From Bacteroidota bacterium (GTDB taxonomy: Bacteria; Bacteroidota; Rhodothermia; JANXDC01): a DNA stretch of 64,000 nucleotides. Shown piece by piece: positions 9,471 to 62,362 of the stretch. Position 1 is the first letter of the stretch; every line of letters starts with the position of its first letter. Below the pieces are notes generated by a model that was not told the origin of the DNA, made no database searches, and worked only from the letters and a program-made list of their open reading frames with translations. The translations under genes and the position numbers were made by a program. The DNA lies in the NCBI GenBank assembly GCA_025998875.1, contig AP024675.1, positions 1,273,549-1,337,548 on the forward strand, given 5' to 3'.

Positions 9471-10204
9471 TAGCGGTTCAAGGCCTGCAGAAGTGGCGGG
9501 GCGATCGCCACGTACTGCGCGGGGTGAGCTTTCAGGTGCCCGAGGGCACCGTGCTCGGCGTGATCGGGGCTTCCGGAAGCGGCAAGACAACCCTGCTGCG
9601 TTGTCTTATGGGGCTGGAGCCCTTCGAGGCGGGCTCTGTATCCTGGCGGGAGATACAGCTCCAGGGAGGGCTTCCGGAGTCGGTCTGGCGTCGTCAGCGC
9701 GATCAATGGCGCCGTCATGTGGGTATGATTTTTCAGCATCTGTACCTGTTCCCTCACCTCACCGTGCTGGGCAACCTCATCGAGGCCCCGGTCCGTGTGT
9801 TGCGCATGCCGGTCCCGGAGGCCGAAGCGCGTGCCCGGCAACTTCTGGCATGGTTCGGGCTGGAGGGATTTGCCCATCGCTATCCGGCCTCGCTTTCCGG
9901 CGGGGAACAGCAGCGCGTTGCCATCGCCCGTGCGCTCATGATGCGCCCGGATGTCCTGTTGCTCGATGAGCCCACCAGCGCCCTCGATCCTGTGCGGTCA
10001 GCCGACGTGCGGGCCCTGCTCCGAAAGTACGTCTCTGAGGGGCATACGATGATCATCGTCTCCCACGCGATCGGTTTTTTGCGGGGGCTGGCCGATTACC
10101 TGCTCTACCTGCAGGAAGGCGAGGTGGTAGAATACGGGCCGGCAGAGGCCGTGCTTCTGGCCCCGCAGGATCCCCGCACACAGGCTTTTCTGCGCTACGC
10201 CTGA
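9467..10204 (+). CDS. Amino-acid ABC transporter ATP-binding protein
   Basis: Walker A GASGSGKTT, ABC signature LSGGEQQRVAIARAL; start set at ATG 9467 overlapping upstream stop (ATGA). Confidence 0.85.
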   Translation: MIAVQGLQKWRGDRHVLRGVSFQVPEGTVLGVIGASGSGKTTLLRCLMGLEPFEAGSVSWREIQLQGGLPESVWRRQRDQWRRHVGMIFQHLYLFPHLTVLGNLIEAPVRVLRMPVPEAEARARQLLAWFGLEGFAHRYPASLSGGEQQRVAIARALMMRPDVLLLDEPTSALDPVRSADVRALLRKYVSEGHTMIIVSHAIGFLRGLADYLLYLQEGEVVEYGPAEAVLLAPQDPRTQAFLRYA

Positions 10205-10260
10205 GGCTGGCACGGGGATCGGGTCGGGCGTAAATTGAACCCACAGCCATCGGAGCCTAT

Positions 10261-20957: not shown

Positions 20958-23900
20958 ATGGTCGGACAGCAGGATGGGCGGGCGTTCTCTGGACGCCCTC
21001 TCGGATTCTTCATGATTGCGCTCACCCTGTGGGGGCTGGCCTCAGGGTCTGTTCCCCGGGGTACAGATCGGTTTTTCCCTGCTCAGCACACCCTTTCGCC
21101 CCCGGCCGTGGGGGCCGACAGCGCGGCGGCGGATACGGGTCGGTCCGCGTTGCCATATCGCCTTCGGTCCTACTGGGTCAGCCCGCTCTTTCCCCGACGG
21201 GTGGAACCCCTTGTCGCCCTGCCCCTGCCGGGCTCCGTGTGGCGCCATGAGGTGCGGCCGGATTCCACCTATAGCCGCATGACCGCGCGGGAAACCGTCT
21301 CCGGCCTTACCGTCCGGATACCGCTCACGGTCGATTATCTGAGCTATCGACAGGAGCGGCTCCGATACGACCTCGCCCGCACCTGGCGGGAGCTGTTGCG
21401 CCTTCGCCAGCAGGAGCAGGCCGCTTCGCGGGGGTTGCTGGATCTGCGCATCGAGGTGCCTGGAGGAAGGTCTTCGGCTTTTAGCACGCTCTTTGGCGCT
21501 CCGACTGTGTCCCTTCGGGTAAACGGCCAGGCCGATATCGATCTGGGCCTGTCCATACAGAACAACCGCGACCCCAACCTACCTCCACAGCAACAGAAGC
21601 GCATCGATCCCCTCTTCGGGCAGAACATCCGGCTCGGGATTTCCGGGGGTATCGGGGATAAGCTGACGGTCTCGACGGACTGGGATACGCAGCGCATGCT
21701 GGATTTTGAAAACCGTCTCAAGCTCCAGTACATCGGCTATGAGGACGAGATCATCAAACGCATCGAGGCCGGAAACGTCTCCCTGCAGACCCCCTCGCAG
21801 CTCATCAGCGGCGGGCAGGCGCTTTTCGGAATTCGCTCCGATCTACAGCTGGGTCCGGTGCGTCTGTCGACGGTCTTCAGTCAGCAGGACGGCGAAAGGG
21901 CGCGCATTGTGCTCGACGGCGGGGTGGAGGAGAACGTCTTTGAGCTCAAGGCTACCGATTACGAGGATGATACGCACTTCTTTCTGGGTTTTTACTTCCG
22001 CAATCGCTGGGGGATCGGCCCGGGGCAGGCCTTCAGCCGTCCACCGACCATCCTGGCCGAGGTACAGATAACCGATGTGGAGGTCTGGGTGTTGCGCCAG
22101 AGCCAGCAGCGGTTGCAGGAAAATGAACGCGACGCGGTGGCGCTGCTGGAGCTCGGTGAGGCCGGGGAGAGCCGACCACCCGATCCAGCGCTGGACCGCT
22201 TCTCGGATGCGGTGCTTGAGCGCCTGCGGCTTTCCAACCAGGTCACAGACATCCTGGAGCGCGAGCTGGGGGTAAGCCCGCGGGCCTACGTACAGGGCAC
22301 TTTTCTTCGGCTGGAGCCGGGCCGGGACTACACTTTCGACCCCAACTTGGGGTATATCAGCCTGCGTACGAGCCTGTCGAATTTCCAGGCGGTGGCGGTG
22401 GCCTACCGCTATGTAGATGCCTCCGGGCGGCTGGTAGAGGTGGGGGACTTCGCCCGGGGAGGGGGGTCGAGTGGATCCCAGATCAACCGCCTGGTGCTCA
22501 AGCTCATCCGACCCACCAATCCGGTGCCCGGGGATCCGTCCTGGGATCTGGTGTTGCGCAACATATACCGATTGCCCGGGAGCAATTTCCGGGCCGGGGA
22601 GCTGCAGCTCGATGTCGTCTATCGCAAACCCGGACTGCCGGAGTCGCGCACCTTGCCCGGGCTGGATATCCGGCAGCGGGATGGTCGGCCCGTTTCGCTT
22701 CTGCAGCTGACCGGGCTGGACAGGCTCAACGACAATCAGGCTCCCCAGCCGGATGATCGCTTCGATTTTCTGCCGGGTTATACAATCAACGAACGCGAGG
22801 GGCGGCTTCTTTTTCCCGTGCTGGAGCCCTTCGGAAGCACGCTCCGGCAGGCCATCTACCAGGCGGCCGCCGAGCGCGCGGACCTCAAGGAGCTGGAAAA
22901 CACCCTCGTCTTTGATGCCCTCTACCGAGAAACCCGCGTCGAGGCCCGACGCGACCCGCGCGATGTCTATTTCATCAAGGGGCGATCTCGCGGCAGCGCA
23001 CGCCAGCAGTACAGCCTGGGTGCCGGGCTGGGTGGGGTCGTGGAGGGCAGTATTCGCGTGCTCAGCGGGGGCGTGCTTGTGCCCCCTTCGGCCTATACGG
23101 TGGACTACATCACGGGCACGATTACCTTTACCGATCCCACCTATCTGCAACCGGGACGGCAGATCATCGTGGAATTCGAACAGCAGAAAGCCTTCCGACT
23201 GCAGCAAAAGACCCTGCTCGGCCTGCGGGCCGACTACGATGCGGCAGAAAATCTCAAACTCGGGGCCACTTTCCTGCAGCTGGGCGAACAGCCCATCGCC
23301 GATAAAAACCGCATCGGCGAGGAGCCGGTCCGCAACCTGATCTGGGGGCTGGACGGCAACTACACGGTGGAATCCCGCTGGCTGACGCGTCTGCTCGATG
23401 TCCTGCCGCTAGTGCAGACCAAAGCCCCCTCCAAACTGCAGGTGCGCGGTGAGGTGGCGCAGCTGGTGCCGGGATTTGTGAGCACCGCCCTGGTCCGTCA
23501 GACCCAGGAGCGGCTGCGCCGCGAAGGCTATCCGGTGCCTCCGGATGAGCGTCGGGGGGTGTCCTATATCGACGACTTTGAGGGCGTGCGCAGCGCGGTC
23601 TCCCTGCTCAGTCCGGGGATCTGGCGTCTGGCCAGCGTGCCCGACTCCATAGGCCGGGTGCGCGGCAGTACGGCCTTTGATGATTCCCTGAAGACAACCT
23701 GGCGCGCCTGGTTGTCTTGGTATGCCATCCCCATTCAGCTCTATGGACAGGATAAAGCCCCTCTGGGCCCGGAGACATGGCCCATTCAGCAGCGCCAACT
23801 CTTCCCCGAACGCCAGGTGCAGCGGGGACAGGACTACCTGCAAACTTTTGATCTATGGTATCTGCCCGGAGAGCGAGGGCCGTACAACTACAACCGCGAT

Positions 23901-26900
23901 CTGGCCGGCTTCAAGGCCGATCCCCGCTCCGCCTGGGCCGGGATCATGACCCGTATTCCGGATGGATACAACAACTTCGAAATCAACAACATCGAGTTTC
24001 TCGAGTTCTGGTTTGCTCCCCAGCTGCGTCCCGGGGATCGGGGCCGACTGTATATCGACATCGGCTATATCAGCGAGGACGTCATTCCGAACGGACAGCT
24101 GAACACAGAAGACGGGCTGGATTCGACCAGTAACTCGTTTACACGCGACCCGTGGGGAAAGGTATCCCGGGGGATCAAGGATCAACTGCTTTCCAACGAC
24201 CCCCGCGTGCGTGCCTACGAGGACGTGGGGTTGGATGGGATGCGGGACGAAGAAGAACGCCTCCATTTCCGGGACTTTCTGGAGGCCGTACGCAGGCAGT
24301 TCGGGGAGAACTCCCCGGAGTATCAACGCCTCTGGAACGATCCCTCTGCGGACAATTACCGCTACTATCTGGATCCGACTCTTCCGGCCGAGGTGGGCTG
24401 GCAGGAGCGATTTCGGCGCTATTTCCCCGGTTTGGAGGGCAACACCCCGCTTGCGCAGTCCGGTATCCTGGGTTCGACAAAGTTTCCGGATACCGAGGAC
24501 CTCAACGGTAACAACGCCCTGGATACACGCAACGCGTATTTTCAGTACGAGCTGGAGCTCGATCCGGAGCAGATGCAGCCGGGCAGGGGATATGTGGTCG
24601 ACCGGCGGGAGGTCGAAATCGGAGGGGTACGGCAGACCTGGTATCTGGTGCGCATTCCTCTGGCGCAGTACCGGCGTCGGGTGGGGGACATCCGGGACTT
24701 CAAGGTGGTTGAGGCCCTCCGATTCTGGCTTACAGGCTTCAGCCAGCCGGTCACGTTGCGCTTTGCCACCCTGGAGCTGGTCGGTAGCCAGTGGACGCGT
24801 CTGAACGTGGGCACGCAGAATCCGGATACCCGCTTTGAGGTGGCCACGATCAATATCGAGGAAAACGCCACGCGCACCCCCATTCCCTACAAGAGCCCTC
24901 CCGGGGCGATCCGTCCGGTCGATCGCACGACGCTGGAGCAGATTCAGCGCAACGAGCAAGCGCTTTTGTTGCGGGTGCAAAACCTCTATCGAGGCGACGA
25001 GCGGGCGATCTTTAAAACCTTCGGAGGCTTGAACCTGTTGCGTTATTCCAACCTGCGTATGGACGTCCACGGCGAGGGATACGAGAAAGCGGAGGAAGCG
25101 GAACTGTTTGTGCGGATCGGTTCGGATTTGCTGCGCGATTACTACGAATACCGGCAACCGGTGAAACCGACCCCCCTGTTGCCGGGAGGGGCCAGCGCCT
25201 ATACGGCCGAGCTTCTATGGCCCGCCGAGAACCGGGTCAATATCCTCCTGGATCGGCTCAATCAGCTCAAGCAACTGCGAGATGAGCGGGGGATTCCCGA
25301 GGATTCTCTTTTCGGGGCTCCGGAGTTGCTCGACTACGAGGATGTGCCCCCCGGGGCGGGCCTGTATATTCGGGGTAGACCCAGCCTGAGCCAGGTTACC
25401 AAGATCGCTGTCGGAATCCGAAACCCGCGCACGGGCCGAGCCGTGCTGAATGCGGAATTCTGGATAAACGAGCTGCGCGTGACGGGCTTCGATGCCCGAT
25501 CCGGATGGGCCGCCGTGGGCAGTGCCAGCCTGCAACTGGCCGATCTGGCTCAGCTGGATTTCAGCCTGGACCGCCGCACGGCGGGATTCGGTTCTGTGGA
25601 AAGCCGGCTCGAAGAGCGCGGCAAGGAAGATCGCTTCAGCTGGTCGCTGAACACGCGCTGGAACCTGGAGCGCTTCTATCTTGCCCGTTACGGATGGCAA
25701 ATCCCTCTGTCCGTCACCTGGCAGCAGTCCCGCACTACGCCCACCTACGCTCCCGGGGCAGGGGGCGATGTGCAGTTGGTCACCATTCGCCGATTGATCG
25801 AGCGGGATACGACGTTGGATCCGGCCCTCCGGCGTATGCGGGTCGATTCCCTCTATCAGGCGGCCCGTACCCAGCGGCAGACACGTTCCATCGCCCTTCC
25901 GAGCATTCGAAAATCGGGTTCTACACACCCGCTGGGTCGGTACCTGCTCGATCCGCTGGGGGTGCAGTTTTCCTATGTCGAGGAGGAGGCCTCCAGTCCC
26001 ACGCTGATCTTCGATCGCCGCTGGCAGTGGTCTACGACGGCGCAGTATCAGCTCACCTTGCCTCGCCTGGCCGTTGTGCGCCCATTCCGTTTTCTGGAGG
26101 GGGTTCCGGTACTGGACCTGCTGGCCGATCTTCGTCTGAATTACCTGCCCAGCTCCCTCTCCTTGCAGGCCGGGCTATCGCGACAGCTCATCCGCACGCA
26201 GGACCGGCCCACGACGGGGGATCTGCGCCAGCAACCCGGTCTGCCCCTGGAGGCCATCAAGCCGGTTCGGGAAACGCATCAGCTGCAGTATCGGGAGGGG
26301 ATGGGCCTGCAGTATAACCCCTTCCCGTTTCTCGGGCTCGGGTACACGTACAATGGACAGACGAGCCTGGCCGCGCTGGGGGTGGATACGATCTATGTGA
26401 CCCTGCAGGATACGGTGCGACTGCGCCGGTTGCGGGTGCTCTCGGAACGCGCCGTCTGGGATCGCCTGTGGGGGCGCTATCCGGGGGTCCGACCGGAGAC
26501 GTACACGCAGAGCTTTTCGGCCACCTTCACTCCCCGGTTCAGCGCCTACCCCGCCTTGCGCTGGCTTGTGCTCTCTGGCGCTTATACGGGAGACTTTTTG
26601 TGGAACAACGGTCCGGCGGGGGACAGTACGGGCGCCCAGATAGGCAACCAGGCCGACTGGCGGATAAACGGGCAGCTGCGTATCGGGGAGCTGTGGAGTT
26701 CGGCTCGCTGGTATCAGGAGCTGCAGGCCTGGTCGCGCGGCGGTAGCCGGGCTTCTGAGCCCCTCTGGAAACAGCTCTGGAGGCGGGTGCTTTTCGCCCT
26801 TACGAGCCTACGCCAGATAGACCTCTCCTTCACCCAGCGGCAACAGGCCCGAAATGCGGGCTTTGCCGGTCCGGCCGGGTTGCGCGCGCTTTTTGCCGAT

Positions 26901-28121
26901 GATCCCAGTCGTCGCTCTCCCTCCCTGGCCTACCGGCTGGGCTGGGAACGCACGCTCGATCCACAGCAGCGCGTGCGCGTAGGCGGGGTGCGGTTTCTGG
27001 ACAGCTGGCAGCAGACCCGGCAGATAGGGGCGCGCACGAGCCTTTCCCTGTTGCCCGAGTTACGGCTGGATCTGAACTGGGATGGGCAGTGGCAGGGCAA
27101 TCTGCAGAGTACGGTTACCTTTGATCCAATGCAGAGGCGCTTTCAGGAGGCTACCACCCGAGAAGGGCAGACGACGCTTACGACTTGGGGGCTGCGGGGC
27201 TCCTACGGTCGGTTTTTCCGGGCTCAATGGGCTCGACTGCAGGCCGACGGTATACAGGGCGGCGAGGTGCGGGACCGCGACGGAGACGGTTTCGTGGTGG
27301 GTTCGAACGCCTCGCTGCTGTGGGATTTTCAACGCACCTTTGGCGGTCCGTTCTCCGGCGTGCGGGATCGCTATGGTATGCTTGTTCTGCCGCTTCCGAA
27401 CTGGCAGGTCGTCTGGACGGGGCTGGAGCGCCTCTGGATTCTGCGCCGGCTGGTCAGCTCGATCGTCCTGCGCCACGGATATGTGGGGCAGTACCAGGCC
27501 TCCTGGAGGGCTAATCTCAACGCGGGGGCACCCTTCACCTACCGCATCGGGGGGATTCGAGTCTACGACACAATCCCCGCCTACGAGGGGCGCGATCTGA
27601 GCATAGCGCAGCGTTTTGCGCCCTTGATCGGTCTCAGCCTGACCTGGAAGGGGGACGTGCGTACGGAGCTCACCTATAATCAGGCGCGCATCGTCTCGCT
27701 CAGCTTTTCGAACGCGAACGTGAACATACGCCGCGTGGCCGAGCTCAGCTTTCGAACCAGCTACCGGCGTTCCCGCTTCCGGCTTCCTTTTTCCCTCTTC
27801 GGCATACGCTCGCTGGATAACGATGTGACGATAGGGCTGGCCATTTCGTTCAGCCAGGAGGTGCGCGATGTCTATTACCTGAGCCAGGACCTCGATGAGG
27901 CGCTTTCGGGTGCTCTGCGCATCGAAGATCTGCGGCCGCGTACCAGTGACGGTTCCGCCCGCTGGGTCATAGAACCCACCTTCGGATACACCTTTTCCAG
28001 CCGGGTCACAGCCGAGTTTCGCTGGCGCATCGAGGACGTGGCCCCGCGCGGCTCCTCGCGCGTGACGCCCTCGACCACGCAGCAGATCGGCTTTAAAATT
28101 CGGGTTGGCATCACATCCTGA
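20958..28121 (+). CDS. sprA: Giant outer-membrane protein, SprA/Sov-like type IX secretion translocon (2387 aa)
   Basis: Single uninterrupted 7.2-kb ORF; N-terminal signal; beta-rich composition with frequent aromatic residues; size and taxon context match SprA. Start may be internal Met at ~21012. Confidence 0.6.
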   Translation: MVGQQDGRAFSGRPLGFFMIALTLWGLASGSVPRGTDRFFPAQHTLSPPAVGADSAAADTGRSALPYRLRSYWVSPLFPRRVEPLVALPLPGSVWRHEVRPDSTYSRMTARETVSGLTVRIPLTVDYLSYRQERLRYDLARTWRELLRLRQQEQAASRGLLDLRIEVPGGRSSAFSTLFGAPTVSLRVNGQADIDLGLSIQNNRDPNLPPQQQKRIDPLFGQNIRLGISGGIGDKLTVSTDWDTQRMLDFENRLKLQYIGYEDEIIKRIEAGNVSLQTPSQLISGGQALFGIRSDLQLGPVRLSTVFSQQDGERARIVLDGGVEENVFELKATDYEDDTHFFLGFYFRNRWGIGPGQAFSRPPTILAEVQITDVEVWVLRQSQQRLQENERDAVALLELGEAGESRPPDPALDRFSDAVLERLRLSNQVTDILERELGVSPRAYVQGTFLRLEPGRDYTFDPNLGYISLRTSLSNFQAVAVAYRYVDASGRLVEVGDFARGGGSSGSQINRLVLKLIRPTNPVPGDPSWDLVLRNIYRLPGSNFRAGELQLDVVYRKPGLPESRTLPGLDIRQRDGRPVSLLQLTGLDRLNDNQAPQPDDRFDFLPGYTINEREGRLLFPVLEPFGSTLRQAIYQAAAERADLKELENTLVFDALYRETRVEARRDPRDVYFIKGRSRGSARQQYSLGAGLGGVVEGSIRVLSGGVLVPPSAYTVDYITGTITFTDPTYLQPGRQIIVEFEQQKAFRLQQKTLLGLRADYDAAENLKLGATFLQLGEQPIADKNRIGEEPVRNLIWGLDGNYTVESRWLTRLLDVLPLVQTKAPSKLQVRGEVAQLVPGFVSTALVRQTQERLRREGYPVPPDERRGVSYIDDFEGVRSAVSLLSPGIWRLASVPDSIGRVRGSTAFDDSLKTTWRAWLSWYAIPIQLYGQDKAPLGPETWPIQQRQLFPERQVQRGQDYLQTFDLWYLPGERGPYNYNRDLAGFKADPRSAWAGIMTRIPDGYNNFEINNIEFLEFWFAPQLRPGDRGRLYIDIGYISEDVIPNGQLNTEDGLDSTSNSFTRDPWGKVSRGIKDQLLSNDPRVRAYEDVGLDGMRDEEERLHFRDFLEAVRRQFGENSPEYQRLWNDPSADNYRYYLDPTLPAEVGWQERFRRYFPGLEGNTPLAQSGILGSTKFPDTEDLNGNNALDTRNAYFQYELELDPEQMQPGRGYVVDRREVEIGGVRQTWYLVRIPLAQYRRRVGDIRDFKVVEALRFWLTGFSQPVTLRFATLELVGSQWTRLNVGTQNPDTRFEVATINIEENATRTPIPYKSPPGAIRPVDRTTLEQIQRNEQALLLRVQNLYRGDERAIFKTFGGLNLLRYSNLRMDVHGEGYEKAEEAELFVRIGSDLLRDYYEYRQPVKPTPLLPGGASAYTAELLWPAENRVNILLDRLNQLKQLRDERGIPEDSLFGAPELLDYEDVPPGAGLYIRGRPSLSQVTKIAVGIRNPRTGRAVLNAEFWINELRVTGFDARSGWAAVGSASLQLADLAQLDFSLDRRTAGFGSVESRLEERGKEDRFSWSLNTRWNLERFYLARYGWQIPLSVTWQQSRTTPTYAPGAGGDVQLVTIRRLIERDTTLDPALRRMRVDSLYQAARTQRQTRSIALPSIRKSGSTHPLGRYLLDPLGVQFSYVEEEASSPTLIFDRRWQWSTTAQYQLTLPRLAVVRPFRFLEGVPVLDLLADLRLNYLPSSLSLQAGLSRQLIRTQDRPTTGDLRQQPGLPLEAIKPVRETHQLQYREGMGLQYNPFPFLGLGYTYNGQTSLAALGVDTIYVTLQDTVRLRRLRVLSERAVWDRLWGRYPGVRPETYTQSFSATFTPRFSAYPALRWLVLSGAYTGDFLWNNGPAGDSTGAQIGNQADWRINGQLRIGELWSSARWYQELQAWSRGGSRASEPLWKQLWRRVLFALTSLRQIDLSFTQRQQARNAGFAGPAGLRALFADDPSRRSPSLAYRLGWERTLDPQQRVRVGGVRFLDSWQQTRQIGARTSLSLLPELRLDLNWDGQWQGNLQSTVTFDPMQRRFQEATTREGQTTLTTWGLRGSYGRFFRAQWARLQADGIQGGEVRDRDGDGFVVGSNASLLWDFQRTFGGPFSGVRDRYGMLVLPLPNWQVVWTGLERLWILRRLVSSIVLRHGYVGQYQASWRANLNAGAPFTYRIGGIRVYDTIPAYEGRDLSIAQRFAPLIGLSLTWKGDVRTELTYNQARIVSLSFSNANVNIRRVAELSFRTSYRRSRFRLPFSLFGIRSLDNDVTIGLAISFSQEVRDVYYLSQDLDEALSGALRIEDLRPRTSDGSARWVIEPTFGYTFSSRVTAEFRWRIEDVAPRGSSRVTPSTTQQIGFKIRVGITS

Positions 28122-45666: not shown

Positions 45667-46278
45667 ATGACGCGTCCGGAAGAGTTACACACAGCCATCG
45701 CGCTGCTGGAGGCTGAGCACTACCAGGAGGCGCTTCCGCTCTGGAAAGCGGCTCTGGAACGCGATCCGCATGATCCGGTCGCCCTGTGGGGGTGCGGGAT
45801 CTGTCTGGAGCAGCTGGGCCAACTCCAGGAAGCGGTCCGCGTCTACGAGGCCCTGCTCGGGTCTGAAGCGCTGGAGGCCCGGTTTCGGGTCGCTATCCTC
45901 AACAACCTGGGCCTGTGCTACTTCCGTCTGGGCCGCTATGAAGAGGCCCGCTCCTGTTTCGCCTCCGCTCTGCCGGAGGATCCGTCGGCCTGTTCGGGTC
46001 GCCATCTGGCCATGACGCTGATCGAACTGGGAGCCTATACCGAAGGGGTGGATCAACTGGTGCGCACGCTGCGCCACCATCCCCAGGATGTGCCGGCCCT
46101 GCTGCTGCTGGCCGGATATCTGGAGGAGGTGGGGGCTTTCGACCGGGCGGCTACCTACTACGAGTGGGCCCGGGACGTGATCAGGGCAAACAGTCCTGAG
46201 CATCCGGATCTGCGGTTTATCGAGGCGCGCATCGAAGGCCTGGCCATCCACAGGCAGAGCACAGGGGAGCGGACATGA
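45667..46278 (+). CDS. TPR-repeat protein
   Basis: Repeated Ala/Leu/Tyr-rich 34-residue helical pattern. Confidence 0.6.
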   Translation: MTRPEELHTAIALLEAEHYQEALPLWKAALERDPHDPVALWGCGICLEQLGQLQEAVRVYEALLGSEALEARFRVAILNNLGLCYFRLGRYEEARSCFASALPEDPSACSGRHLAMTLIELGAYTEGVDQLVRTLRHHPQDVPALLLLAGYLEEVGAFDRAATYYEWARDVIRANSPEHPDLRFIEARIEGLAIHRQSTGERT

Positions 46279-47648
46279 AGCCGCGCATCAGCCTGGCCAT
46301 GATTACGCGCAACGAAGAAAAAAACCTGCCCGAGGCGCTCCGTTCCGTCCAGGGCGTGGTCGATGAGGTGGTGATCGTGGATACAGGCTCAACGGATGGG
46401 ACGATCCGCATCGCGCGCGCCTGGGGTGCTCGGGTCCTTTCCGTACCCTGGGAGGAGGATTTCGCGCGGGCCCGAAACGCGGCGCTGCCCCACATCCGCG
46501 GCGACTGGTTGCTGTGGATGGATGCCGATGAGCGGCTGGTCCCCGAAAGCCGGCCGTTTTTTGATCTGTTGCCGGAGCAGGCAGATCCTCCGATCGGATT
46601 CCGGGTATACCTGCGCAACTGGACCGAGGACCGGCGCTCCTTTGATCTCTCCTGGGCGATGCGGCTGGTACGCCTCTTTCCGGGCCTTGCCTTCACGGGT
46701 CGCGTGCACGAACAGCTCTCCAGCGCCCTGGCCCGACACGGGGGTGTGGTGCTCGACAGTCCGGTAGTGCTCGATCACTTCGGCTACGGGCTTTCCGCAG
46801 AACAGATGCGGCTCAAGTTGGAGCGCAACTATCGGCTCCTGGCGCAGCAGATCAAAGAAGAGCCTCACAACGCCTATGCGCACCTGACCATGGGGCTCAA
46901 CCGCCTGAGCGCCGGAGATTTCGGGGCGGCTGTACGCCATTTTCGCCTGGCGCTTCGGCTTCGCCAGGGTCTGGATTCGATGCTCCTGCTAGCCGCGCAC
47001 AACGGACTGGCCCGGGCGTATCTGGAGCAGGGAGAACTGGAGCAGGCCTACCGGTGGGCACGCCGTTCCTTGCGTTTGGAGAAAAGCCAGGCCTGTCCCT
47101 ATTTGGTTCTGGGAGATATCTATCGGCGCCGGGGACAGCGCAAGCGGGCCTATGCGGTCCTGCAGAGCGCCCTGCAGTATGGTCCAGAGCGCTCCCGGGC
47201 TGCCTATGACATAAATCCCCATCGACCGGCGCTGTACGAGACGATCCTCGGGCTGGCCCTGGAGCTGGGCCGATACGAAGAGGCGCGCCTTTTTCTGGAG
47301 CGGCTGTGGGTGCTCAAGCCGGAGCGGGCGATCGCCGAGTGGCGCTATCGCATGGCCGTCGCATGCGGTGCGCCCGCACAGCAGGTGCTGGAGGCCTACG
47401 AAGCCCTGCTTGGCTTTCTAGAGAGGGAGGCAGAAGCCGATGCCCCCCTGCACCTGCTGTTAGCGGAAGGGCGGCTGGCAGAGGCCGCGGGGGGTTACGA
47501 AATGGCGCTATGCCGGTTTCCAAATGCTCCGCTCCTGCTGCGTCGTCTAGCCGGGGTTCGAGTCAAGCTGGGCGATCTGCGTGGGGCACATGCTTTGCTG
47601 AGCGAGGGTTTGCCGGTTGCCGGAGCAATCAAGGAGGTCCGTGCATGA
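46275..47648 (+). CDS. Family-2 glycosyltransferase with C-terminal TPR domain
   Basis: GT2 N-terminus SLAMITRNEEKNLPEAL...VVDEVVIVDTGSTDGT, DxD-like WMDADE; C-terminal TPR repeats; ATGA coupling to both neighbours. Confidence 0.75.
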   Translation: MKPRISLAMITRNEEKNLPEALRSVQGVVDEVVIVDTGSTDGTIRIARAWGARVLSVPWEEDFARARNAALPHIRGDWLLWMDADERLVPESRPFFDLLPEQADPPIGFRVYLRNWTEDRRSFDLSWAMRLVRLFPGLAFTGRVHEQLSSALARHGGVVLDSPVVLDHFGYGLSAEQMRLKLERNYRLLAQQIKEEPHNAYAHLTMGLNRLSAGDFGAAVRHFRLALRLRQGLDSMLLLAAHNGLARAYLEQGELEQAYRWARRSLRLEKSQACPYLVLGDIYRRRGQRKRAYAVLQSALQYGPERSRAAYDINPHRPALYETILGLALELGRYEEARLFLERLWVLKPERAIAEWRYRMAVACGAPAQQVLEAYEALLGFLEREAEADAPLHLLLAEGRLAEAAGGYEMALCRFPNAPLLLRRLAGVRVKLGDLRGAHALLSEGLPVAGAIKEVRA

Positions 47649-55776: not shown

Positions 55777-56124
55777 CTACCCTTCCCACTCTAGCCATCC
55801 CCCATCGGATGATCGAGGCCGATAGCGGTCCTGGGCCTCCGCGTAACGGTGAAGCTCCGCCAAAGCGGCCTCACAGGCGGCCAGCTGTTCTCGTAAGCGG
55901 CTTTCGAGCTCCCGCTCCTTCTGGGCGATCCGTTCTAGGCAATCGCGCATCTCTTGGTCTTCGCTTTGGCCGGTCTGCGGCTCCCGAAGGAGTTCCTGCA
56001 ATTCCCGTTCCCTTTCTTCGAGCAGTTCGAGCGCGCCCGTGGTATCATGAGTGTGCAAGGCGTTCAGGATCTGCTCCGTAAGGTGCTCGATGCGCCGCAG
56101 GCGCGCCGTTGCTCTCATGGTCAT
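55777..56124 (-). CDS. Hypothetical coiled-coil protein (possible FliT-like chaperone)
   Basis: 115 aa, Glu/Leu/Arg-rich heptad pattern; location downstream of flaG/fliD/fliS; overlaps flaG 3' end by ~80 nt so start is uncertain. Confidence 0.3.
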   Translation of the reverse strand: MTMRATARLRRIEHLTEQILNALHTHDTTGALELLEERERELQELLREPQTGQSEDQEMRDCLERIAQKERELESRLREQLAACEAALAELHRYAEAQDRYRPRSSDGGWLEWEG

Positions 56125-56533
56125 CCCCCTGGAGGCTGCTCAGCAGGTTCTGCAGGCTCTGGACCAGCTCCAGAAACTCCGTGGGCGGAATCTCCCGGAT
56201 CACCTCTCCCGTGTCCGGATCGATCAGGCGCGTGATGATACGGCCTGTTTCCGGATGCACCTGAAAGGTAATCGCGATCCGATTGGCCCGCAAGACCATA
56301 TCCCGCTGCCGGAGCCATTCCTGCAGATGCCGGATCTGTAGGCCCAGCTCGGAAAGCTCAACGGCTTCCTGAAGCCCGGCGTTGTTCTGCCGCTCCGGGG
56401 TATTCGAGAGCTCGGATTCGGAAAAGTGCGTCGATCGATCCGAAGCCGTCGCCTCTGAGGGGGCGACCGGACGTACGGGGGGAAGGGGGGCCGGCAGGGG
56501 TTGTATGCGTTCTATGGGTGCGAGGTTGGCCAT
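56045..56533 (-). CDS. flaG: Flagellar protein FlaG
   Basis: ITFQVHPETGRIITRLIDPDTGEVIREIPPTEFLEL matches FlaG core. Confidence 0.7.
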   Translation of the reverse strand: MANLAPIERIQPLPAPLPPVRPVAPSEATASDRSTHFSESELSNTPERQNNAGLQEAVELSELGLQIRHLQEWLRQRDMVLRANRIAITFQVHPETGRIITRLIDPDTGEVIREIPPTEFLELVQSLQNLLSSLQGDDHESNGAPAAHRAPYGADPERLAHS

Positions 56534-56549: not shown

Positions 56550-58028
56550 TTATCGGTGGATCGTCAGTTGCGCCATGTAGGCCTGCAAGGCGCTCATCTG
56601 GGATTCGGCTTTGGAGAGCGCATCCCGCAGTTGAGCAAACTGCCGGCGCAGTTGCTCTTCGCGCACCTTCATGCGCGCCTCGAAGTCCGATATCTGTTTG
56701 TTCGTGCGCCCAAGCTGAGCGTCTATGCTCTCCTGCATGCGCTGCAGGGTGCCATCCTGCCGCCGGTAGCTATCGACCAGCGCGTTGAGCCGGGTGGCCA
56801 GCCCATCTGGGCCGGCAAAGAAGGCCCGCACAGCCTCCGGATCCTCCTCCAGCGCCTGTGCCAGCCGGGCCGGATGGGAGATCGTCAGCCGTCCTTCCCG
56901 GTCGGCGGTGATGCCCAGCGCGGCGAGCGTGCTGTAGGTGCCGGAGACGCGCTCCAGCGCGCTTCGCCGCAGACTGCCGAGCAGGCCCAGCACAAGGCCA
57001 TCGCCCGCCAGCGGGCCACGGGTCCGGGAGGCGGAGTTTATGCTCGTGTGGGTGCGCAGCGTGGAGAGCGCCTCGTTGTAGGCGCGCAAAAAGTCCTCTA
57101 TCGATCGGCGCGCCGCGGCCCCATCGCGGGAAACGGTTACGGTGACCTCCTGGGTCGTGGGGGCCAGGAGGGTAAGGGTGAGCCCTTCGATGGCATCGGA
57201 AACGGTGTTCCCGTCCCGGTAAAACGGCAGGCCGTTTATCGTGAAGGCCGCATTCAAGGACGAGGAGGCCGCATCTGTTCCCGGATCGGCCAGGTATCCT
57301 CCGGAGGATCCGGATGCCAGCCCGTTTCGGGAAAGCTCCAAGGCGCCGAGCAGGCCACCTGCGGAATCGATAAAGCCAAGCCGATATGTATACCCCGTCT
57401 GGGAACTGCTCAGGAGCAGACGGACCGTTCCCCTGTGCTCCTGCACCACGGAGACAGTGGGCTTCTCGGAGCGCAACAACAGGCCATCGGATACGGCCTG
57501 ATCGAGAGCACCTGCAATGGCCGCGGCGATCTCCTGCAGGATGGTGGCGTTATCCGATCCGGTGGGATTGAGCGTGACGGCGATTTGCAGACGCCCTTCG
57601 GGGTCGGATTCGGTGGGATGGGCCACTTCGAGCCAGAAGGTCTGGGGACCGTTTGCGTCGAAGAAGGCGCGCAGCTCAGATCCGCTCCGACTGTACTGCT
57701 GCGAGACGCGTGTGTCGGCCCGTGCCAGGCGCTGGACCGAAACGGTATACGTGGCCGGTGAGGCCAGTTGCGAAGCGCTGACCCGCAGGAGCTCAGGGTG
57801 AGAGGAGCTGGCGGTTTTGGCCACGAAGGCCCCACCTTGAGGATCGAGGAGGTTGTTCAGCTGGGTCTGCAGCGCACTCAAGCGGCTTTGCAGCTCAGCG
57901 AGCGCGGAGCGGCGCGTCTCCAGACGTTTGCGCTGCTCGAGGAGTCGGTTTTTGGGCGTGCTTTCGTACTGGATGATCTTCTCGATCAACTGCTCATAGG
58001 GATCGTTGAGCAACTGGTTGATCAGCAT
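56550..58028 (-). CDS. fliD: Flagellar filament cap protein FliD
   Basis: N-terminal and C-terminal coiled-coil FliD regions; start placed at ATG 58026-58028, 2 nt after fliS stop (track ORF begins at GTG 58058). Confidence 0.8.
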   Translation of the reverse strand: MLINQLLNDPYEQLIEKIIQYESTPKNRLLEQRKRLETRRSALAELQSRLSALQTQLNNLLDPQGGAFVAKTASSSHPELLRVSASQLASPATYTVSVQRLARADTRVSQQYSRSGSELRAFFDANGPQTFWLEVAHPTESDPEGRLQIAVTLNPTGSDNATILQEIAAAIAGALDQAVSDGLLLRSEKPTVSVVQEHRGTVRLLLSSSQTGYTYRLGFIDSAGGLLGALELSRNGLASGSSGGYLADPGTDAASSSLNAAFTINGLPFYRDGNTVSDAIEGLTLTLLAPTTQEVTVTVSRDGAAARRSIEDFLRAYNEALSTLRTHTSINSASRTRGPLAGDGLVLGLLGSLRRSALERVSGTYSTLAALGITADREGRLTISHPARLAQALEEDPEAVRAFFAGPDGLATRLNALVDSYRRQDGTLQRMQESIDAQLGRTNKQISDFEARMKVREEQLRRQFAQLRDALSKAESQMSALQAYMAQLTIHR

Positions 58029-58030
58029 GG

Positions 58031-58339
58031 CTATCGCTTGAGCACGTGGTTTTTCCACTGCTGGCGTAGTTCGGCCAGCACTTCACGTACGGCCTCGAAA
58101 TGGCCATTGTGCGTCTGATGCAGACAGTACATGTAGAGCTCGAAGAACGTACGGGCCACCTCCTCGTAGTCGAAATTCAGGCTGTTGATCAGCTCCCGGA
58201 GTACGAGGCGCAGCCGGTCACGGTCGCGGCGCGCACAGGCCTGTAGCCCGAGGTCATAGAGGGTAAGGACTAATTCTTCCGGGGAGGCAGACAGAATTTC
58301 CTGCTGTTTGTACTGTCGGGCGTACTGCTGGGCGAGCAT
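58031..58339 (-). CDS. fliS: Flagellar export chaperone FliS
   Basis: 102-aa helical bundle protein with FliS-like core (LTLYDLGLQACARRD...FELYMYC). Confidence 0.75.
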   Translation of the reverse strand: MLAQQYARQYKQQEILSASPEELVLTLYDLGLQACARRDRDRLRLVLRELINSLNFDYEEVARTFFELYMYCLHQTHNGHFEAVREVLAELRQQWKNHVLKR

Positions 58340-58430: not shown

Positions 58431-59309
58431 TTAGCGGAACAGGGAGAGCACGGCCTGGGGATTGGCGTTGGCCTGCGCCAGGGCAACGGTGGCCGTCTGC
58501 TGCAGGATCTGCAACTTGGCCACGCGCAGCTGCTCCTTGGCAAAATCGGCATCAAAGACCCGGCTGCGAGCCCCCTCCGTGTTCGTGATCTGCGCGGAGA
58601 GCATGTTTTCCTTGACCGTGAGCCGCGTCTGGAAGGCGCCCAGGTCCCGGATGGCCGCGCTTACCGTGGAAATTGCCTGGTCAATAGAGGCCAGCGCCGC
58701 CGAGAAGCTGGCCGCCGACGACGATCCGGTGAGCGCACCCGATCCGGTGACCACCCCGCTGAGCAGACCCACGGACTGGAAGGTCGTGGTGCTGCCGCTG
58801 GAGGTGATGGAGAAGGTCACGGTGTCGGAGTTGTCCGGACCCACGTGGAACTGGAGGGTGCTCGAGGAAGAGTTGTAGTCCTTCAGCAGGGCGCGTCCGT
58901 TGTACTTGGTCTGCTCGACGATCTGGTCGATCTCCCGACCCAGGGCCTGGATGTCGGCCACGATGGCGGTGCGCTCCTCTTGCGCCATGGAATCATTGGC
59001 CCCGCGGGTGACCTTCTCCTTGATCGTCTGCAGGATGTCCATGATCGACTGCAGACCGCCCTCGGCCACCGAGAGCATGTTCTTGGCGTCCCCGATGTTG
59101 TCCAGGGCCGCGCTCAGCCCCCGAATGCGGGCCTCGAGCTTCTTGCCCAGGGCATAGCCGGCCGAATCGTCCTCGGCCGAGTTGATCCGATAGCCCGTGG
59201 CCAGACGCGTCTGCCGCACGCCCAGCTCCCGGTTGATGCGAAAGAGCGAATTGAGCGCGCCCAGGGACTGAGCATCGGAATTGATGCGCGTCAGATCTCC
59301 GAACGGCAT
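58431..59309 (-). CDS. fliC: Flagellin
   Basis: Conserved flagellin N-terminal (LRINSAEDDSAGYA) and C-terminal (QILQQTATVALAQANANPQAVLSLFR) helices; short Ser/Thr-rich central region. Confidence 0.9.
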   Translation of the reverse strand: MPFGDLTRINSDAQSLGALNSLFRINRELGVRQTRLATGYRINSAEDDSAGYALGKKLEARIRGLSAALDNIGDAKNMLSVAEGGLQSIMDILQTIKEKVTRGANDSMAQEERTAIVADIQALGREIDQIVEQTKYNGRALLKDYNSSSSTLQFHVGPDNSDTVTFSITSSGSTTTFQSVGLLSGVVTGSGALTGSSSAASFSAALASIDQAISTVSAAIRDLGAFQTRLTVKENMLSAQITNTEGARSRVFDADFAKEQLRVAKLQILQQTATVALAQANANPQAVLSLFR

Positions 59310-59407: not shown

Positions 59408-59575
59408 ATTGTCCCTGGGGGGGTATGTCTGTACCGAACCAGATGGCGGGCCTGCAGGGCCGATATTCTGATCAGTCCAATGGGGAGCGGGAAGACGGCC
59501 AGGCAGGACAGGGGATGGGATTGACGACCGCCGTTCTGGTCCCGACAGAGCCGGGGTAATTTTTTCCGCATCTCG

Positions 59576-62362
59576 ATGGGGAATGAATTTGGCCTGCTCG
59601 GCTGTGTATGTCGAGGAAAGGAAGGCGTTATGTCGGCTGATCGGCGGCTGTACCGGCGTTATCCTGCCCGGGGACCCTGGCCAGAGGTGAACGTGTCCGT
59701 GATCGTAGTGAACTACAACCGAGCCTCTTGCCTGCAGGATTGCTTCGATAGCCTGTTTCATCAAACATATCGAAATTTTGAAATCATTCTTGTAGATGAC
59801 GGAAGTTCGGATAATTCCAGAGATATTTTATTGAATATTTTTGAAAAAAATAGGAAAGACAAAAAAATTCCTTTTAGAATGATAATTCAACAAAATAGTG
59901 GACATCCTTCTTATCCCATAAATAGAGCTATGAGGCTTGCGAGAGGAAAGTATATACTTTTTCTTTCGTCAGACGACATGATACATCATAAGTGTATAGA
60001 AATATTTGTAAAAATTTTAGATGAAATGCAAGAATATGGATATGTTTATTGTGATAGAGTGGATTTCAAAGATAAAAACATTTTAAAAATAGTAAAATCA
60101 AATTATTTTGATGCTGATAAGTTAATTTTTGAAAATTTTGTTTCTTATTGTTCTATGTTTAGAAAAGAAATATTTAAAAAAGTTAAAAAAATTAAAAAAG
60201 TTGGCTTTGAAGATTGGAATTTATGGATTGAATTTCTAAAGTTTGGTTATCATGGATTTTATGTTCCTGAGCCTCTGTTTCTGTATCGAATAAACGAAGA
60301 TGGATTGTTTTCGAAAAATATAGAAGAAAAAGAAAAGAATATTGCCCAGCTGATCCGGGAAAATACAGTGTTATACCACCCGGAGGTGCTCAACTGGGCG
60401 TTCAAGGTGCTGGGCGAAAGGCAGGAACCTCCGCTCTTCAGCATTATCGTGCCTACCCGCAACAGGCCGGAGTGGCTTCGGGAGGCCCTTCGGAGCATTC
60501 AGCAGCAGACCGTGGCCAATTTTGAGGTGCTCGTCGTCAACGATGGGGGGCAGGATGTCTCCCACGTGGTCGCATCCCTCCAGGACAGTCGATTTCGATA
60601 CATCGCGCTTCCGGAGCGGCGGGGACTGGCTGCCGCCCGCAACCGGGGCCTTGAGGAGGCGCGCGGCCGGTATGTGGCTTTCCTGGATGATGATGATCGC
60701 TTCCTGCCCCATCATCTGCAAACGGCCTGGATCGCCCTCTCCGAGGGGGCGCGCGTGGTCTACACGGACGCGCTGCGCGCCGTCTGGGCACCCCTGCCCC
60801 GGGGAGGGGAAGCGATTGTCGATCTCTGTCTGCCGTATCGGCTTGACTTCCATCCCGATCGGCTTCTACTGGGCAACATCGCGCCCGTAAACTGCTTCGT
60901 GCTGGAGCGCGAACTCATTGAGCGATACGGCCCCTTTGATGAGTCCTTGCCCGTGCTGGAGGACTGGGAGTTCTGGTTGCGCCTGTCGCGGCGGGTGCGC
61001 TTTCGGCGCATCCCTGAGCCCACGGTGTGGGTCAACTGGCGGCCCCACGGCCAGAACCTGACCCACAGCCGGGAGCAGGATTTCGCCCGGGCCCGTGCCC
61101 GCATTCAGGCCCGATACCGTCGGGCCCTTGTCCGGCTTGCGCCCGAGAGACGGCAGGAGATCCTCCACGAGTTCCTTCGCATCTGGTCTCGGGATGGTGT
61201 GCTTCCTGAACCGCCCCTGCTCTCCATTGTGATCCTGGCACACAACCAATTTCCTCATACCCGAGCCTGTCTGCAGTCCGTGCTCACCCATACTCCGCCC
61301 TGGTCGTTCGAATGCATCGTCGTCGACAACGGCTCCACGGACGAAACGCCCCGCCTGCTTCCCCGGTGGGCAGAGGAGCATCCACAGATTCGATACATCC
61401 GCCTGGAGGAGAACCGGGGGTTTCCGGCCGGCAATAACGTGGGGCTGGCCGCCGCCCAGGGACGCTATGTGATCCTGCTCAACAACGATACCGTCGTTAC
61501 CCCCGGATGGATCGAGCGCCTGCTGCTGCCCGCCGTAACCGATCCCTCTGTGGGGCTCGTGGGGCCCGTTTCCAATCGCGTCTCCGGCAGGCAACAGCTC
61601 CCGGCCGTCGCCTACGACACCGAGACCCTCAAGGGGTTGGAGGCTTTCGCCTTGAAACGGGCGCGCTGGTATGCGGGCCGAAAGCTTGAAGTCCGACGTC
61701 TGGTGGGCTTTTGTCTGCTCATCCGACGCGAGTTGCTCGAGCGCATCGGTGGGCTGGATGAGCGCTTCGGTATGGGCAACTTCGAGGACGACGATTACTG
61801 CCTGCGCGCCGCTCTGGCCGGTTTCCGGGCCGTCGTGGCGCTGGATTGTTTCGTGCATCATACCGGAAGCCAGACTTTCCGCGCCCTATCCATAGATTAC
61901 GGCCGATTGCTGCTGGAGAACTGGGAGAAGTTCAAACATAAATGGCATCTGCCCGCCGATCTTCCCTATGGGCATCCGTATCCGTTTCCCGAGCGGCCCT
62001 TCGATCCGTCCCGGGATTACATCCCGCTACCCCGATGGGAGCGGCCGCTGGAGGACTTCGTGGCCGGTGTGCAACAAGCCCTTCTGCAGGGCGACGCGCT
62101 CCGAGCCGAGCATCTGGCCTACGAGGTCACTCGAGTCCATCCCCGAAACCCCTACGCCTGGTTGTTGCGCGCCTTGGTGGCCCGGCTGGACCGTAGATGG
62201 GATGAGGCTCTTGAGGCCGTGCGATATTCCCTTCGGCTCCAGGAGACCCCGGAAGCGCTCCAGGAACTGCGCCGTCTGCTCGAGGGCACTGGCGTGGGCA
62301 AGCAAGTGCCGCCGTATAGGGAAGAGCCCTGCCCTGAGCAGGCGGCCCTCAAGCACCTCTGA
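59576..62362 (+). CDS. Multidomain glycosyltransferase: three tandem GT2 domains plus C-terminal TPR-like region (928 aa)
   Basis: Three GT2 cores: (1) VSVIVVNYNR...ILVDDGSSDNS...SSDD; (2) FSIIVPTRNR...VVNDGGQD...DDDD; (3) LSIVILAHNQ...VVDNGSTDET...NND; start may be ATG 59630. Confidence 0.8.
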   Translation: MGNEFGLLGCVCRGKEGVMSADRRLYRRYPARGPWPEVNVSVIVVNYNRASCLQDCFDSLFHQTYRNFEIILVDDGSSDNSRDILLNIFEKNRKDKKIPFRMIIQQNSGHPSYPINRAMRLARGKYILFLSSDDMIHHKCIEIFVKILDEMQEYGYVYCDRVDFKDKNILKIVKSNYFDADKLIFENFVSYCSMFRKEIFKKVKKIKKVGFEDWNLWIEFLKFGYHGFYVPEPLFLYRINEDGLFSKNIEEKEKNIAQLIRENTVLYHPEVLNWAFKVLGERQEPPLFSIIVPTRNRPEWLREALRSIQQQTVANFEVLVVNDGGQDVSHVVASLQDSRFRYIALPERRGLAAARNRGLEEARGRYVAFLDDDDRFLPHHLQTAWIALSEGARVVYTDALRAVWAPLPRGGEAIVDLCLPYRLDFHPDRLLLGNIAPVNCFVLERELIERYGPFDESLPVLEDWEFWLRLSRRVRFRRIPEPTVWVNWRPHGQNLTHSREQDFARARARIQARYRRALVRLAPERRQEILHEFLRIWSRDGVLPEPPLLSIVILAHNQFPHTRACLQSVLTHTPPWSFECIVVDNGSTDETPRLLPRWAEEHPQIRYIRLEENRGFPAGNNVGLAAAQGRYVILLNNDTVVTPGWIERLLLPAVTDPSVGLVGPVSNRVSGRQQLPAVAYDTETLKGLEAFALKRARWYAGRKLEVRRLVGFCLLIRRELLERIGGLDERFGMGNFEDDDYCLRAALAGFRAVVALDCFVHHTGSQTFRALSIDYGRLLLENWEKFKHKWHLPADLPYGHPYPFPERPFDPSRDYIPLPRWERPLEDFVAGVQQALLQGDALRAEHLAYEVTRVHPRNPYAWLLRALVARLDRRWDEALEAVRYSLRLQETPEALQELRRLLEGTGVGKQVPPYREEPCPEQAALKHL
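59760..60350. other. AT-rich compositional island (roughly 30% GC by eye) inside the glycosyltransferase ORF, in frame
   Basis: Visibly Lys/Asn/Ile/Phe-rich AT-rich codons across ~590 bp flanked on both sides by high-GC coding sequence of the same reading frame. Confidence 0.85.

Follow-up and report, generated by a model that had tools for sequence, protein, structure and literature searches.

An AT-rich island in the first GT2 domain of a flagellin-adjacent glycosyltransferase from a hot-spring Rhodothermia, most likely a recombination import

How does a stretch of strikingly AT-rich DNA come to lie, in frame, within a single catalytic domain of an otherwise GC-rich gene? The question is raised by a glycosyltransferase gene that lies beside the flagellin gene fliC in a stretch of 64,000 nucleotides (hereafter the window) of contig AP024675.1 (assembly GCA_025998875.1, positions 1,273,549 to 1,337,548), from a hot-spring lineage of the Bacteroidota/Rhodothermia. 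The window averages ~63% guanine plus cytosine (GC). The protein carries three tandem GT2 domains, of which the first is for the most part encoded by the AT-rich DNA, and a preliminary description of the locus had proposed a recent domain swap from a low-GC donor. The analyses presented here reveal that the island is real and sharply bounded, that it is most likely a recombination import, and that the only close relative found (hereafter the sister) carries a different and larger low-GC mosaic at the same locus. The gene, the island and the parts of the encoded protein are as follows.

59630 to 62362, plus strand: triple-GT2 glycosyltransferase gene, 910 amino acids (aa) plus stop (list of open reading frames; Pfam PF00535 in three stretches)
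59693 to 60304, plus strand: GT2 domain 1, residues 22-225 (E22-28, H32-43, E50-57 and on to E209-220 in the AlphaFold2 model)
59756 to 60343, plus strand: AT-rich island, residues F43 to I238 of the 910-aa protein (change-point fit, hidden Markov model, codon-position GC, codon use)
59795 to 59806, plus strand: D56-D57-G58-S59, nucleotide-binding motif of domain 1 (from sequence; family consensus IIVNDGS)
59969 to 59977, plus strand: S114-D115-D116, DxD-type metal/donor-binding motif of domain 1 (from sequence; family consensus L.ADD)
60209 to 60217, plus strand: E194-D195-W196, acceptor-side motif of domain 1 (from sequence; family consensus EDWDFW)
60305 to 60412, plus strand: interdomain helical linker, residues 226-261 (AlphaFold2 helices 226-232, 234-244 and 251-261)
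60437 to 61189, plus strand: GT2 domain 2, residues 270-520 (270-470 plus helices to 520), GC 0.65
61220 to 61942, plus strand: GT2 domain 3, residues 531-771, GC-rich in window and sister
62048 to 62287, plus strand: C-terminal helical repeat, TPR-like, residues 807-886 (AlphaFold2 helices)

A two-change-point likelihood fit and a two-state hidden Markov model agree on one single segment of 588 bp (196 codons) at 59756-60343, with a GC content of 25.5% (0.255 against 0.60 in the flanks), in close agreement with the 59760-60350 first reported. The 2-lnL support intervals of the edges are 59738-59763 on the left and 60340-60375 on the right. When the GC content is followed in steps of 200 nt, it drops from 0.58-0.66 to 0.17-0.32 between ~59700 and 60350. 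At a resolution of 150 nt, the mean is 0.630 (sd 0.054), the minimum of 0.167, reached at 60045, lies ~8.5 sd lower, and the island is the sole stretch below 0.45 in the whole 64 kb; all 1-kb bins are at or above 0.57, save the two that hold it. The anomaly is equally visible in the coding character of the segment. Its GC at third codon positions (GC3) is 0.05-0.25, against 0.75-0.80 around it, and codons that are rare in the host are enriched (ATA 10 against 1, AGA 6 against 2, TTA 5 against 1). The amino acids FYMINK make up 0.47 of the island and 0.15-0.18 of sequence elsewhere, GARP account for 0.13 as opposed to 0.33-0.35, and K/(K+R) is 0.70, compared with 0-0.19 elsewhere. Since the amino-acid composition shifts along with codon use, the signature extends beyond synonymous sites to the protein itself, and both match a genome of ~30% GC. 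Atypical composition and codon use within sharp borders, the marks by which horizontally acquired DNA is recognised, are thus present in the island.

The junctions were inspected for traces of a mobile element. No flanking direct or inverted repeats were found beyond AT low-complexity matches, nor were any tRNA genes, Rfam matches or mobility genes found at the island. Terminal repeats, a target duplication, an integrase or transposase and a tRNA site are all missing, and the whole segment forms part of one GT2 reading frame. The lack of flanking repeats, tRNA genes and Rfam matches rules out a mobile element or cassette, in line with the earlier statement that this is not an insertion element.

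The start codon of the gene is probably the ATG at 59630, which is used by most gene callers and yields 910 aa; an upstream ATG at 59576 gives 928 aa. Pfam PF00535 is matched in three stretches with 296 bits (gathering cut-off 23.3 bits). The AlphaFold2 model, computed from 27 family sequences, has a mean predicted local distance difference test score (pLDDT) of 87.8 (84-96 across the island) and displays three GT-A domains, each with alternating β/α elements, while residues 1-14 are disordered. DxD-type or acidic motifs (SDD, DDDD and NND, plus EDW) occur across the domains, so that model and motifs together indicate the GT-A fold. Among solved structures, single domains match SpsA, TarP and GalT1 (phmmer search of PDB sequences, Foldseek), and the whole chain matches the tandem GT-A enzymes K4CP and PmHS2 (Foldseek). 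The C-terminal PF13432 match is weak (residues 838-887 of the 928-aa reading frame, i.e., 820-869 of the 910-aa protein). On sequence grounds, we regard the protein, with its three GT-A/GT2 catalytic domains in tandem, as a cytoplasmic enzyme from a family that adjoins flagellin genes.

The island fits into this architecture with some precision. Residues 22-42 of domain 1 (β-1 and α-1) are encoded by GC-rich DNA, and the island takes over at F43, the final residue of α-1. The left junction thereby falls at the end of this helix (H32-43), directly before β-2 and D56-D57-G58-S59, and the right junction falls inside linker helix H234-244. Because the span runs from β-2 to the linker, the island holds all donor- and acceptor-side elements of domain 1, and the fold of the domain is predicted to be intact over both junctions. 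The preserved frame and the coherent GT2 core with its DDGS, SDD and EDW motifs, both noted in the preliminary description, are hence corroborated by Pfam, AlphaFold2 and PDB matches.

The mosaic is also found in independent assemblies. The exact 910-aa product is present on at least 20 independently assembled contigs (JGI, Logan, ENA and NCBI), and five DNA copies of the island show no differences. Over ~4.8 kb, contigs L001, L003, L004 and L028 differ from the window at 3-4 sites, none of them in the island or at its edges. A scan of metagenome DNA with a 26-mer from the left flank recovered one further contig, with the same mosaic and no other allele. With at least 20 contigs, and five DNA copies identical over both junctions, an assembly chimera is excluded as the source of the junctions. 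Polymorphism within the species is too sparse to give the direction of amelioration. The qualifier "recent" in the preliminary description is not demonstrated: the lack of amelioration is its only basis, and the sampled strains all share an identical island.

Two peculiarities of these assemblies deserve mention. Contigs L001, L003, L004 and L028 stop inside or just upstream of the 5' end of fliC (window 59183-59294), which suggests either that strains differ here or that assembly is interrupted by a repeated sequence coding for the flagellin N-terminus. Furthermore, two assemblies call a 735-aa product (P0122, i.e., BCX01162.1, KatS3mg041_1208, and P0124) that starts at M176 (window 60155) within the island. 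These calls hint at a frameshift in an A7 run (59844-59850 or 59861-59867) or at a contig end; a third A7 run, 60185-60191, lies downstream of M176.

The closest protein relative, and the only close one found, is P0002, a protein of 890 aa with 54% identity, encoded at the syntenic locus L002 of the sister (GCA_033580315.1). Flanking orthologs of window and sister are 55-92% identical (FliC 88, sigma-54 activator 83, BpsA_C 75, MscS 67 and FliD 64). Neither species is among the 100,044 species-representative genomes of GTDB r220, though both have metagenome-assembled genomes at NCBI; the best matches in that set are family members with 33-48% identity, from Bacteroidota, Ignavibacteria, Bacillota, Eremiobacterota and Paenibacillus.

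Low-GC DNA at the sister locus amounts to ~3.9 kb in two blocks, and is thus larger than the island. The block at L002 7662-9750 includes an FdtA gene, a gene for a DegT-family aminotransferase and, of a formyltransferase gene, the two thirds at the 5' end. The block at 9872-11653 begins upstream of the glycosyltransferase gene and continues through its first two domains into the start of the third, as far as the VDNGSTD motif there. They are parted by a GC-rich patch of 121 bp (9751-9871) that is homologous to the intergenic DNA of the window. The breakpoints differ from those of the window: one interrupts the formyltransferase gene, and another coincides with the VDNGSTD motif in domain 3. 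A low-GC domain 1 is therefore not peculiar to the window genome, since the sister bears a homologous AT-rich one. The earlier division into one foreign and two native GT2 domains is not demonstrated.

The three sugar genes of the sister, which encode formyltransferase, DegT-aminotransferase and FdtA, occupy L002 7340-9741, between fliC and the glycosyltransferase gene, and are predicted to form a dTDP-3-formamido-3,6-dideoxyhexose pathway. Within the formyltransferase gene, composition changes as well: the ~320 nt at the 3' end are GC-rich and the rest is AT-rich, which makes this gene a mosaic too. No counterparts of FdtA, DegT or formyltransferase were found anywhere in the 64-kb window, so that linked sugar-synthesis genes, which the sister has, are lacking there. 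This difference in gene content makes a difference in the glycan plausible.

Each of the three domains has the sister as its best match, followed by members of the same multi-GT2 family. The preliminary description had suggested checking whether the best hits of island and flanks come from different phyla; both lead to the same sister protein and the same family. A search with the island only, against 90%-identity clusters, returned just single-domain GT2 proteins of 31-38% identity. The identity between window and sister is 47-48% for domain 1, 51% for domain 2 and 71% for domain 3. To set these values against the wider family, the window-sister distance was divided by the median outgroup distance, both for amino acids and after Dayhoff-6 recoding, which neutralises K/R, I/V and D/N swaps. 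The resulting ratios are given below.

Domain 1: amino-acid 0.86, Dayhoff-6 0.84
Domain 2: amino-acid 0.87, Dayhoff-6 0.89
Domain 3: amino-acid 0.53, Dayhoff-6 0.46

Domain 2 of the window is thus deeply diverged from the AT-rich domain 2 of the sister, while domain 3 behaves like an ordinary ortholog. The step in identity, from ~50% to ~75%, falls on the AT-to-GC breakpoint of the sister. The unequal depth of divergence implies that domain 3 and the flanks descended vertically, and that the N-terminal two thirds represent old, separate alleles. Low-GC versions of the gene certainly exist, since family members in low-GC Bacteroidota and Ignavibacteria are of uniformly low GC (0.32-0.39). One of them, at locus L025, is part of a classical flagellin glycosylation island, with flagellin, FlaG, FliD and FliS genes next to NeuB and a CMP-sugar transferase.

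The explanation in which we place moderate confidence is that low-GC segments of homologous glycosylation genes, from unsampled low-GC organisms, have entered the locus repeatedly by recombination. The island would then be a low-GC recombination tract that replaced the resident GC-rich sequence of domain 1 from β-2 to the interdomain linker, and the exchange would have swapped every donor- and acceptor-binding residue of that domain, while the promoter, the N-terminus, β-1/α-1 and domains 2 and 3 would be retained as native. The donor gene would have been a homologue from the same multi-GT2 subfamily, carried by an organism of ~30% GC. The sister would have taken up other, larger tracts, namely the block of sugar genes and a segment with domains 1, 2 and the start of 3, presumably independently. 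Crossovers would have occurred at conserved GT2 motifs or domain boundaries: in the window, at QTY/VDDGS of domain 1 and in the linker; in the sister, at VDNGSTD of domain 3 and at a domain boundary of the formyltransferase. The GC-rich stubs (β-1/α-1 in the window; the formyltransferase 3' end and the promoter patch in the sister) may be remnants of the resident genes. As the tracts of the sister differ and are larger, the locus behaves as a hypervariable surface-glycan locus that is re-assorted at domain boundaries. Of the swap put forward in the preliminary description, the low-GC recombination origin stands as the best explanation; a donor is not demonstrated, the best match outside the sister being 39% identical.

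Several observations weigh against this reading. An exhaustive HMMER search (1.84 billion representatives; ~15 billion proteins) returned domain 1 of the sister as the best match of the island (47-48%), followed by a match of 39%, and the AT-rich aminotransferase of the sister has no match above 59%, with mixed taxa among its hits. In neighbour-joining trees, window and sister pair in domains 1, 2 and 3 with 98, 100 and 100% bootstrap, a topology that is concordant throughout while the distance ratios are discordant between domains. Together with the same-family matches, this pairing identifies the island as the family's own domain 1 and not as an unrelated GT2. For domains 1 and 2 it speaks against separate imports, since simple parsimony places an AT-rich domain 1 in the common ancestor and independent imports would need two donors that were each other's closest relatives. 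A faster pace of evolution in domains 1 and 2 could explain part of their high ratios, the species comparison spans two lineages only, and the direction, AT into GC and not the reverse, is deduced from the host composition only. The preliminary description had named as evidence against a swap that relatives carry the same AT-rich segment with the same best hits as the flanks; this is what we see in part, as the only related genome found carries the homologous AT-rich domain 1.

A low-GC cassette, comprising the sugar genes and the N-terminal two thirds of the glycosyltransferase gene, might instead have predated the split of the two species and been AT-rich ever since. The island would then be a relic: the window lineage would later have shed the sugar genes, and GC-rich sequence would have overwritten both the 5' stub and domain 2. 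The AT-rich state of domain 1 in both lineages, the well-supported pairing of domains 1 (98%) and 2 (100%), the failure to detect separate donors and the larger state displayed by the sister are all in favour of such a cassette. However, synonymous sites between window and sister are saturated (third-position identity 0.2-0.5), and yet the GC3 of the island is still 0.05-0.25 where that of the genome is near 0.8, which argues against tracts that have been resident in a 63% GC genome since the split. This argument assumes an ordinary pace of amelioration, which may be slower if biased gene conversion, not mutation, keeps GC high. Furthermore, a vertically inherited domain 1 should have a distance ratio of ~0.5, as domain 3 has, instead of 0.84-0.86; the overwriting of domain 2 would itself require a GC-rich donor; and gradual amelioration does not yield sharp edges. 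An ancestral cassette is for these reasons considered unlikely, if still the main rival. A related claim, that AT-rich specificity domains have been stably maintained in both lineages since before their divergence to ~70-75% protein identity, in genomes of ~63% GC, is in our view improbable. If true, either low GC or rare codons would have to be selected for in modules that set glycan specificity, or the locus would have to evade the force that keeps GC high elsewhere, for which biased gene conversion and selection are candidates. The locus would then also be a good place to tackle the long-standing puzzle of why genes for surface glycans have the lowest GC in many bacteria.

AT-richness might also be selected for itself, as a rare-codon throttle, by silencing or altered transcription, or, in a thermophile, for its effect on local DNA melting. 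AT tracts do last at one locus in two diverged lineages, host-rare codons are strongly enriched, and the fact that in many bacteria no genes are lower in GC than those for glycan processing has been raised as a question that needs explanation (Reeves et al., PMC3715488). On the other hand, the amino-acid composition is shifted too, the borders of the tracts differ by lineage and in the sister include whole sugar genes, and other family members just follow the GC of their hosts. Promoter-like sites within the island number 2 against 2.6 expected, with no surplus over shuffled sequence, and no conserved RNA structure was found, which leaves this option with a small share of our confidence. Within the genome, an AT-rich paralog, e.g., a glycosyltransferase of an O-antigen cluster, could have supplied the tract by gene conversion, which is rated as very improbable: surface-polysaccharide clusters are often of low GC and our view of the genome is one of 64 kb, yet the searched collections hold proteins of this organism, as shown by a cluster with members from NCBI, JGI, ENA and Logan and by a 2.4-Mb contig, and no such paralog turned up, with nothing above 48% identity to the island. 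Least credible of all, to the point of being negligible, is the joining of low-GC reads into a high-GC gene during assembly or binning. The window is probably metagenome-derived, and other assemblies have contig ends a few hundred bases upstream, but the 910-aa product recurs in four archives and with differing assemblers, the DNA of L001, L003, L004 and L028 is identical over both junctions, both junctions are in frame and structurally sensible, and the sister has the same type of mosaic. Recombination with homologous genes of low-GC origin is the reading that we retain.

The features that surround the glycosyltransferase gene are listed below in the order of their position.

20958 to 28121: SprA of the type IX secretion system, 2387 aa
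41379 to 45656: flgI, flgK and flgL
46275 to 47648, plus strand: second glycosyltransferase, with an N-terminal GT2 domain and C-terminal TPR (Pfam), just downstream of flgK and flgL
56045 to 56533, minus strand: flaG
56550 to 58058, minus strand: fliD
58031 to 58339, minus strand: fliS
58431 to 59309, minus strand: fliC, flagellin of 292 aa (Pfam Flagellin_N and Flagellin_C), divergent to the glycosyltransferase gene
59417 to 59423, no strand assigned: poly-G tract between fliC and the glycosyltransferase gene, its length differing between assemblies
59555 to 59567, plus strand: 13-mer GGTAATTTTTTCC, identical in the sister (L002 9834-9846), within a GC-rich intergenic patch of ~60% identity
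62349 to 63263, minus strand: MscS-type channel
from 63264, minus strand: BpsA_C-domain gene

The glycosyltransferase gene adjoins fliC, fliS, fliD and flaG, and a similar arrangement is seen at L002 and L025, as in flagellin glycosylation islands. The adjacency to fliC had been noted before, with a gap of 270 bp; the distance from the fliC start (59309) is 266 or 320 bp depending on the start codon, and 320 bp is preferred since the ATG at 59630 is a likelier start than that at 59576. From the sequence and the neighbourhood, the triple-GT2 enzyme would build or extend an O-linked glycan on flagellin. The imported domain 1 would then add a different sugar or linkage, and the change in sugar or acceptor specificity suggested in the preliminary description is, by the same reading of the sequence, plausible. 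Translation may also be lowered, as the 196 codons of the island are rich in the host-rare ATA, AGA and TTA.

The GT2+TPR gene at 46275-47648 may encode a flagellin-recognising partner of the triple-GT2 enzyme, for which it is a candidate; a similar gene lies near the flagellin gene of L025. The presence of SprA and flagellar genes in one window indicates that the organism has both type IX secretion and flagella.

The intergenic region between fliC and the glycosyltransferase gene displays two features of its own. The poly-G tract varies in length (window and L001, G7; L003, G8; L004, G10) and, with an adjacent C/G difference, represents nearly the sole variation over 4.8 kb. It could switch the expression of fliC or of the glycosyltransferase gene by slipped-strand mispairing, or reflect homopolymer assembly error. 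The -7 promoter element of the Bacteroidota is TAnnTTTG, and by its likeness to this element the 13-mer GGTAATTTTTTCC, which is carried by the 121-bp patch of the sister as well, is possibly the promoter of the glycosyltransferase gene. The patch around GGTAATTTTTTCC overlaps a call for a terminator-like hairpin. RNA structure in the conserved intergenic patch is not significant, with z-scores of -0.87 and +0.72.

Mosaics of this kind are known from O-antigen and capsule gene clusters. The O-antigen clusters of Salmonella contain blocks of 28-37% GC in a genome of 52% GC, with glycosyltransferase genes as their most AT-rich members (PMC3715488). In the rfb clusters, e.g., those of groups B, D and E, recombination has joined sequences within genes such as rml and wbaN, chimeric genes occur, and the donors are generally unidentified (PMC3715488). 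The locus described here resembles them in its low-GC blocks, its intragenic junctions, the lack of a known donor and the occurrence of different mosaics at one locus in related taxa. In contrast, the block in the window measures 588 bp and lies within one domain of a three-domain enzyme, the contrast in composition is larger (25.5% against 63%), and the setting is a flagellar locus in a hot-spring Rhodothermia host. Flagellin glycosylation islands of Pseudomonas, Campylobacter, Aeromonas and Clostridium combine glycosyltransferase and sugar genes beside fliC, fliD and fliS, with a content that varies among relatives. NeuB and the CMP-sugar transferase at L025, and FdtA, DegT and formyltransferase in the sister, conform to this pattern, whereas the window has no sugar-synthesis genes in its 64 kb, and the enzyme belongs to neither the Maf nor the FlmG type. 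Little of direct relevance was found in the literature on the GC content of flagellin islands or on intragenic mosaic glycosyltransferases.

With respect to architecture, the best whole-model matches of solved structure are the chondroitin polymerase K4CP and the heparosan synthase PmHS2 (Foldseek E 1e-25 to 1e-19). As in the window protein, a single chain holds several GT-A/GT2 domains, and each domain has a DxD site; unlike it, they have two domains, produce polysaccharide polymers and share 12-20% identity with it. Their low template modelling scores (TM-scores, 0.2-0.35) are explained by the different arrangement of the domains. Flagellin O-glycosyltransferases of the GT2-TPR design include GmaR. 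The protein also resembles FlmG and other enzymes of this design in that helical-repeat/TPR and catalytic modules are combined in products of flagellar-cluster genes (FlmG, PMC7591256). FlmG has an N-terminal specificity domain and a single catalytic domain, while the window protein has three GT2 domains and a short, TPR-like C-terminal tail; the window also contains the GT2+TPR gene at 46275-47648.

The case needs no new mechanism and is a clean example of the familiar diversification of surface-sugar genes. What is particular to it is the resolution, a 588-bp segment that comprises the core of a single domain, the contrast of 25.5% with 63% GC, and a second species whose mosaic at this locus is a different one. 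The patch amounts to a natural domain-swap experiment, in which the binding core of a GT-A domain would have been exchanged while the promoter, the first β-α unit and two catalytic domains were kept, with a fold that is predicted to be intact. The breakpoints in window and sister suggest that multi-domain flagellin glycosyltransferases evolve by module replacement at conserved motifs, which would be useful to glyco-engineering and to an understanding of how flagellar surfaces diversify in environmental bacteria, for instance under pressure from phages or grazers.

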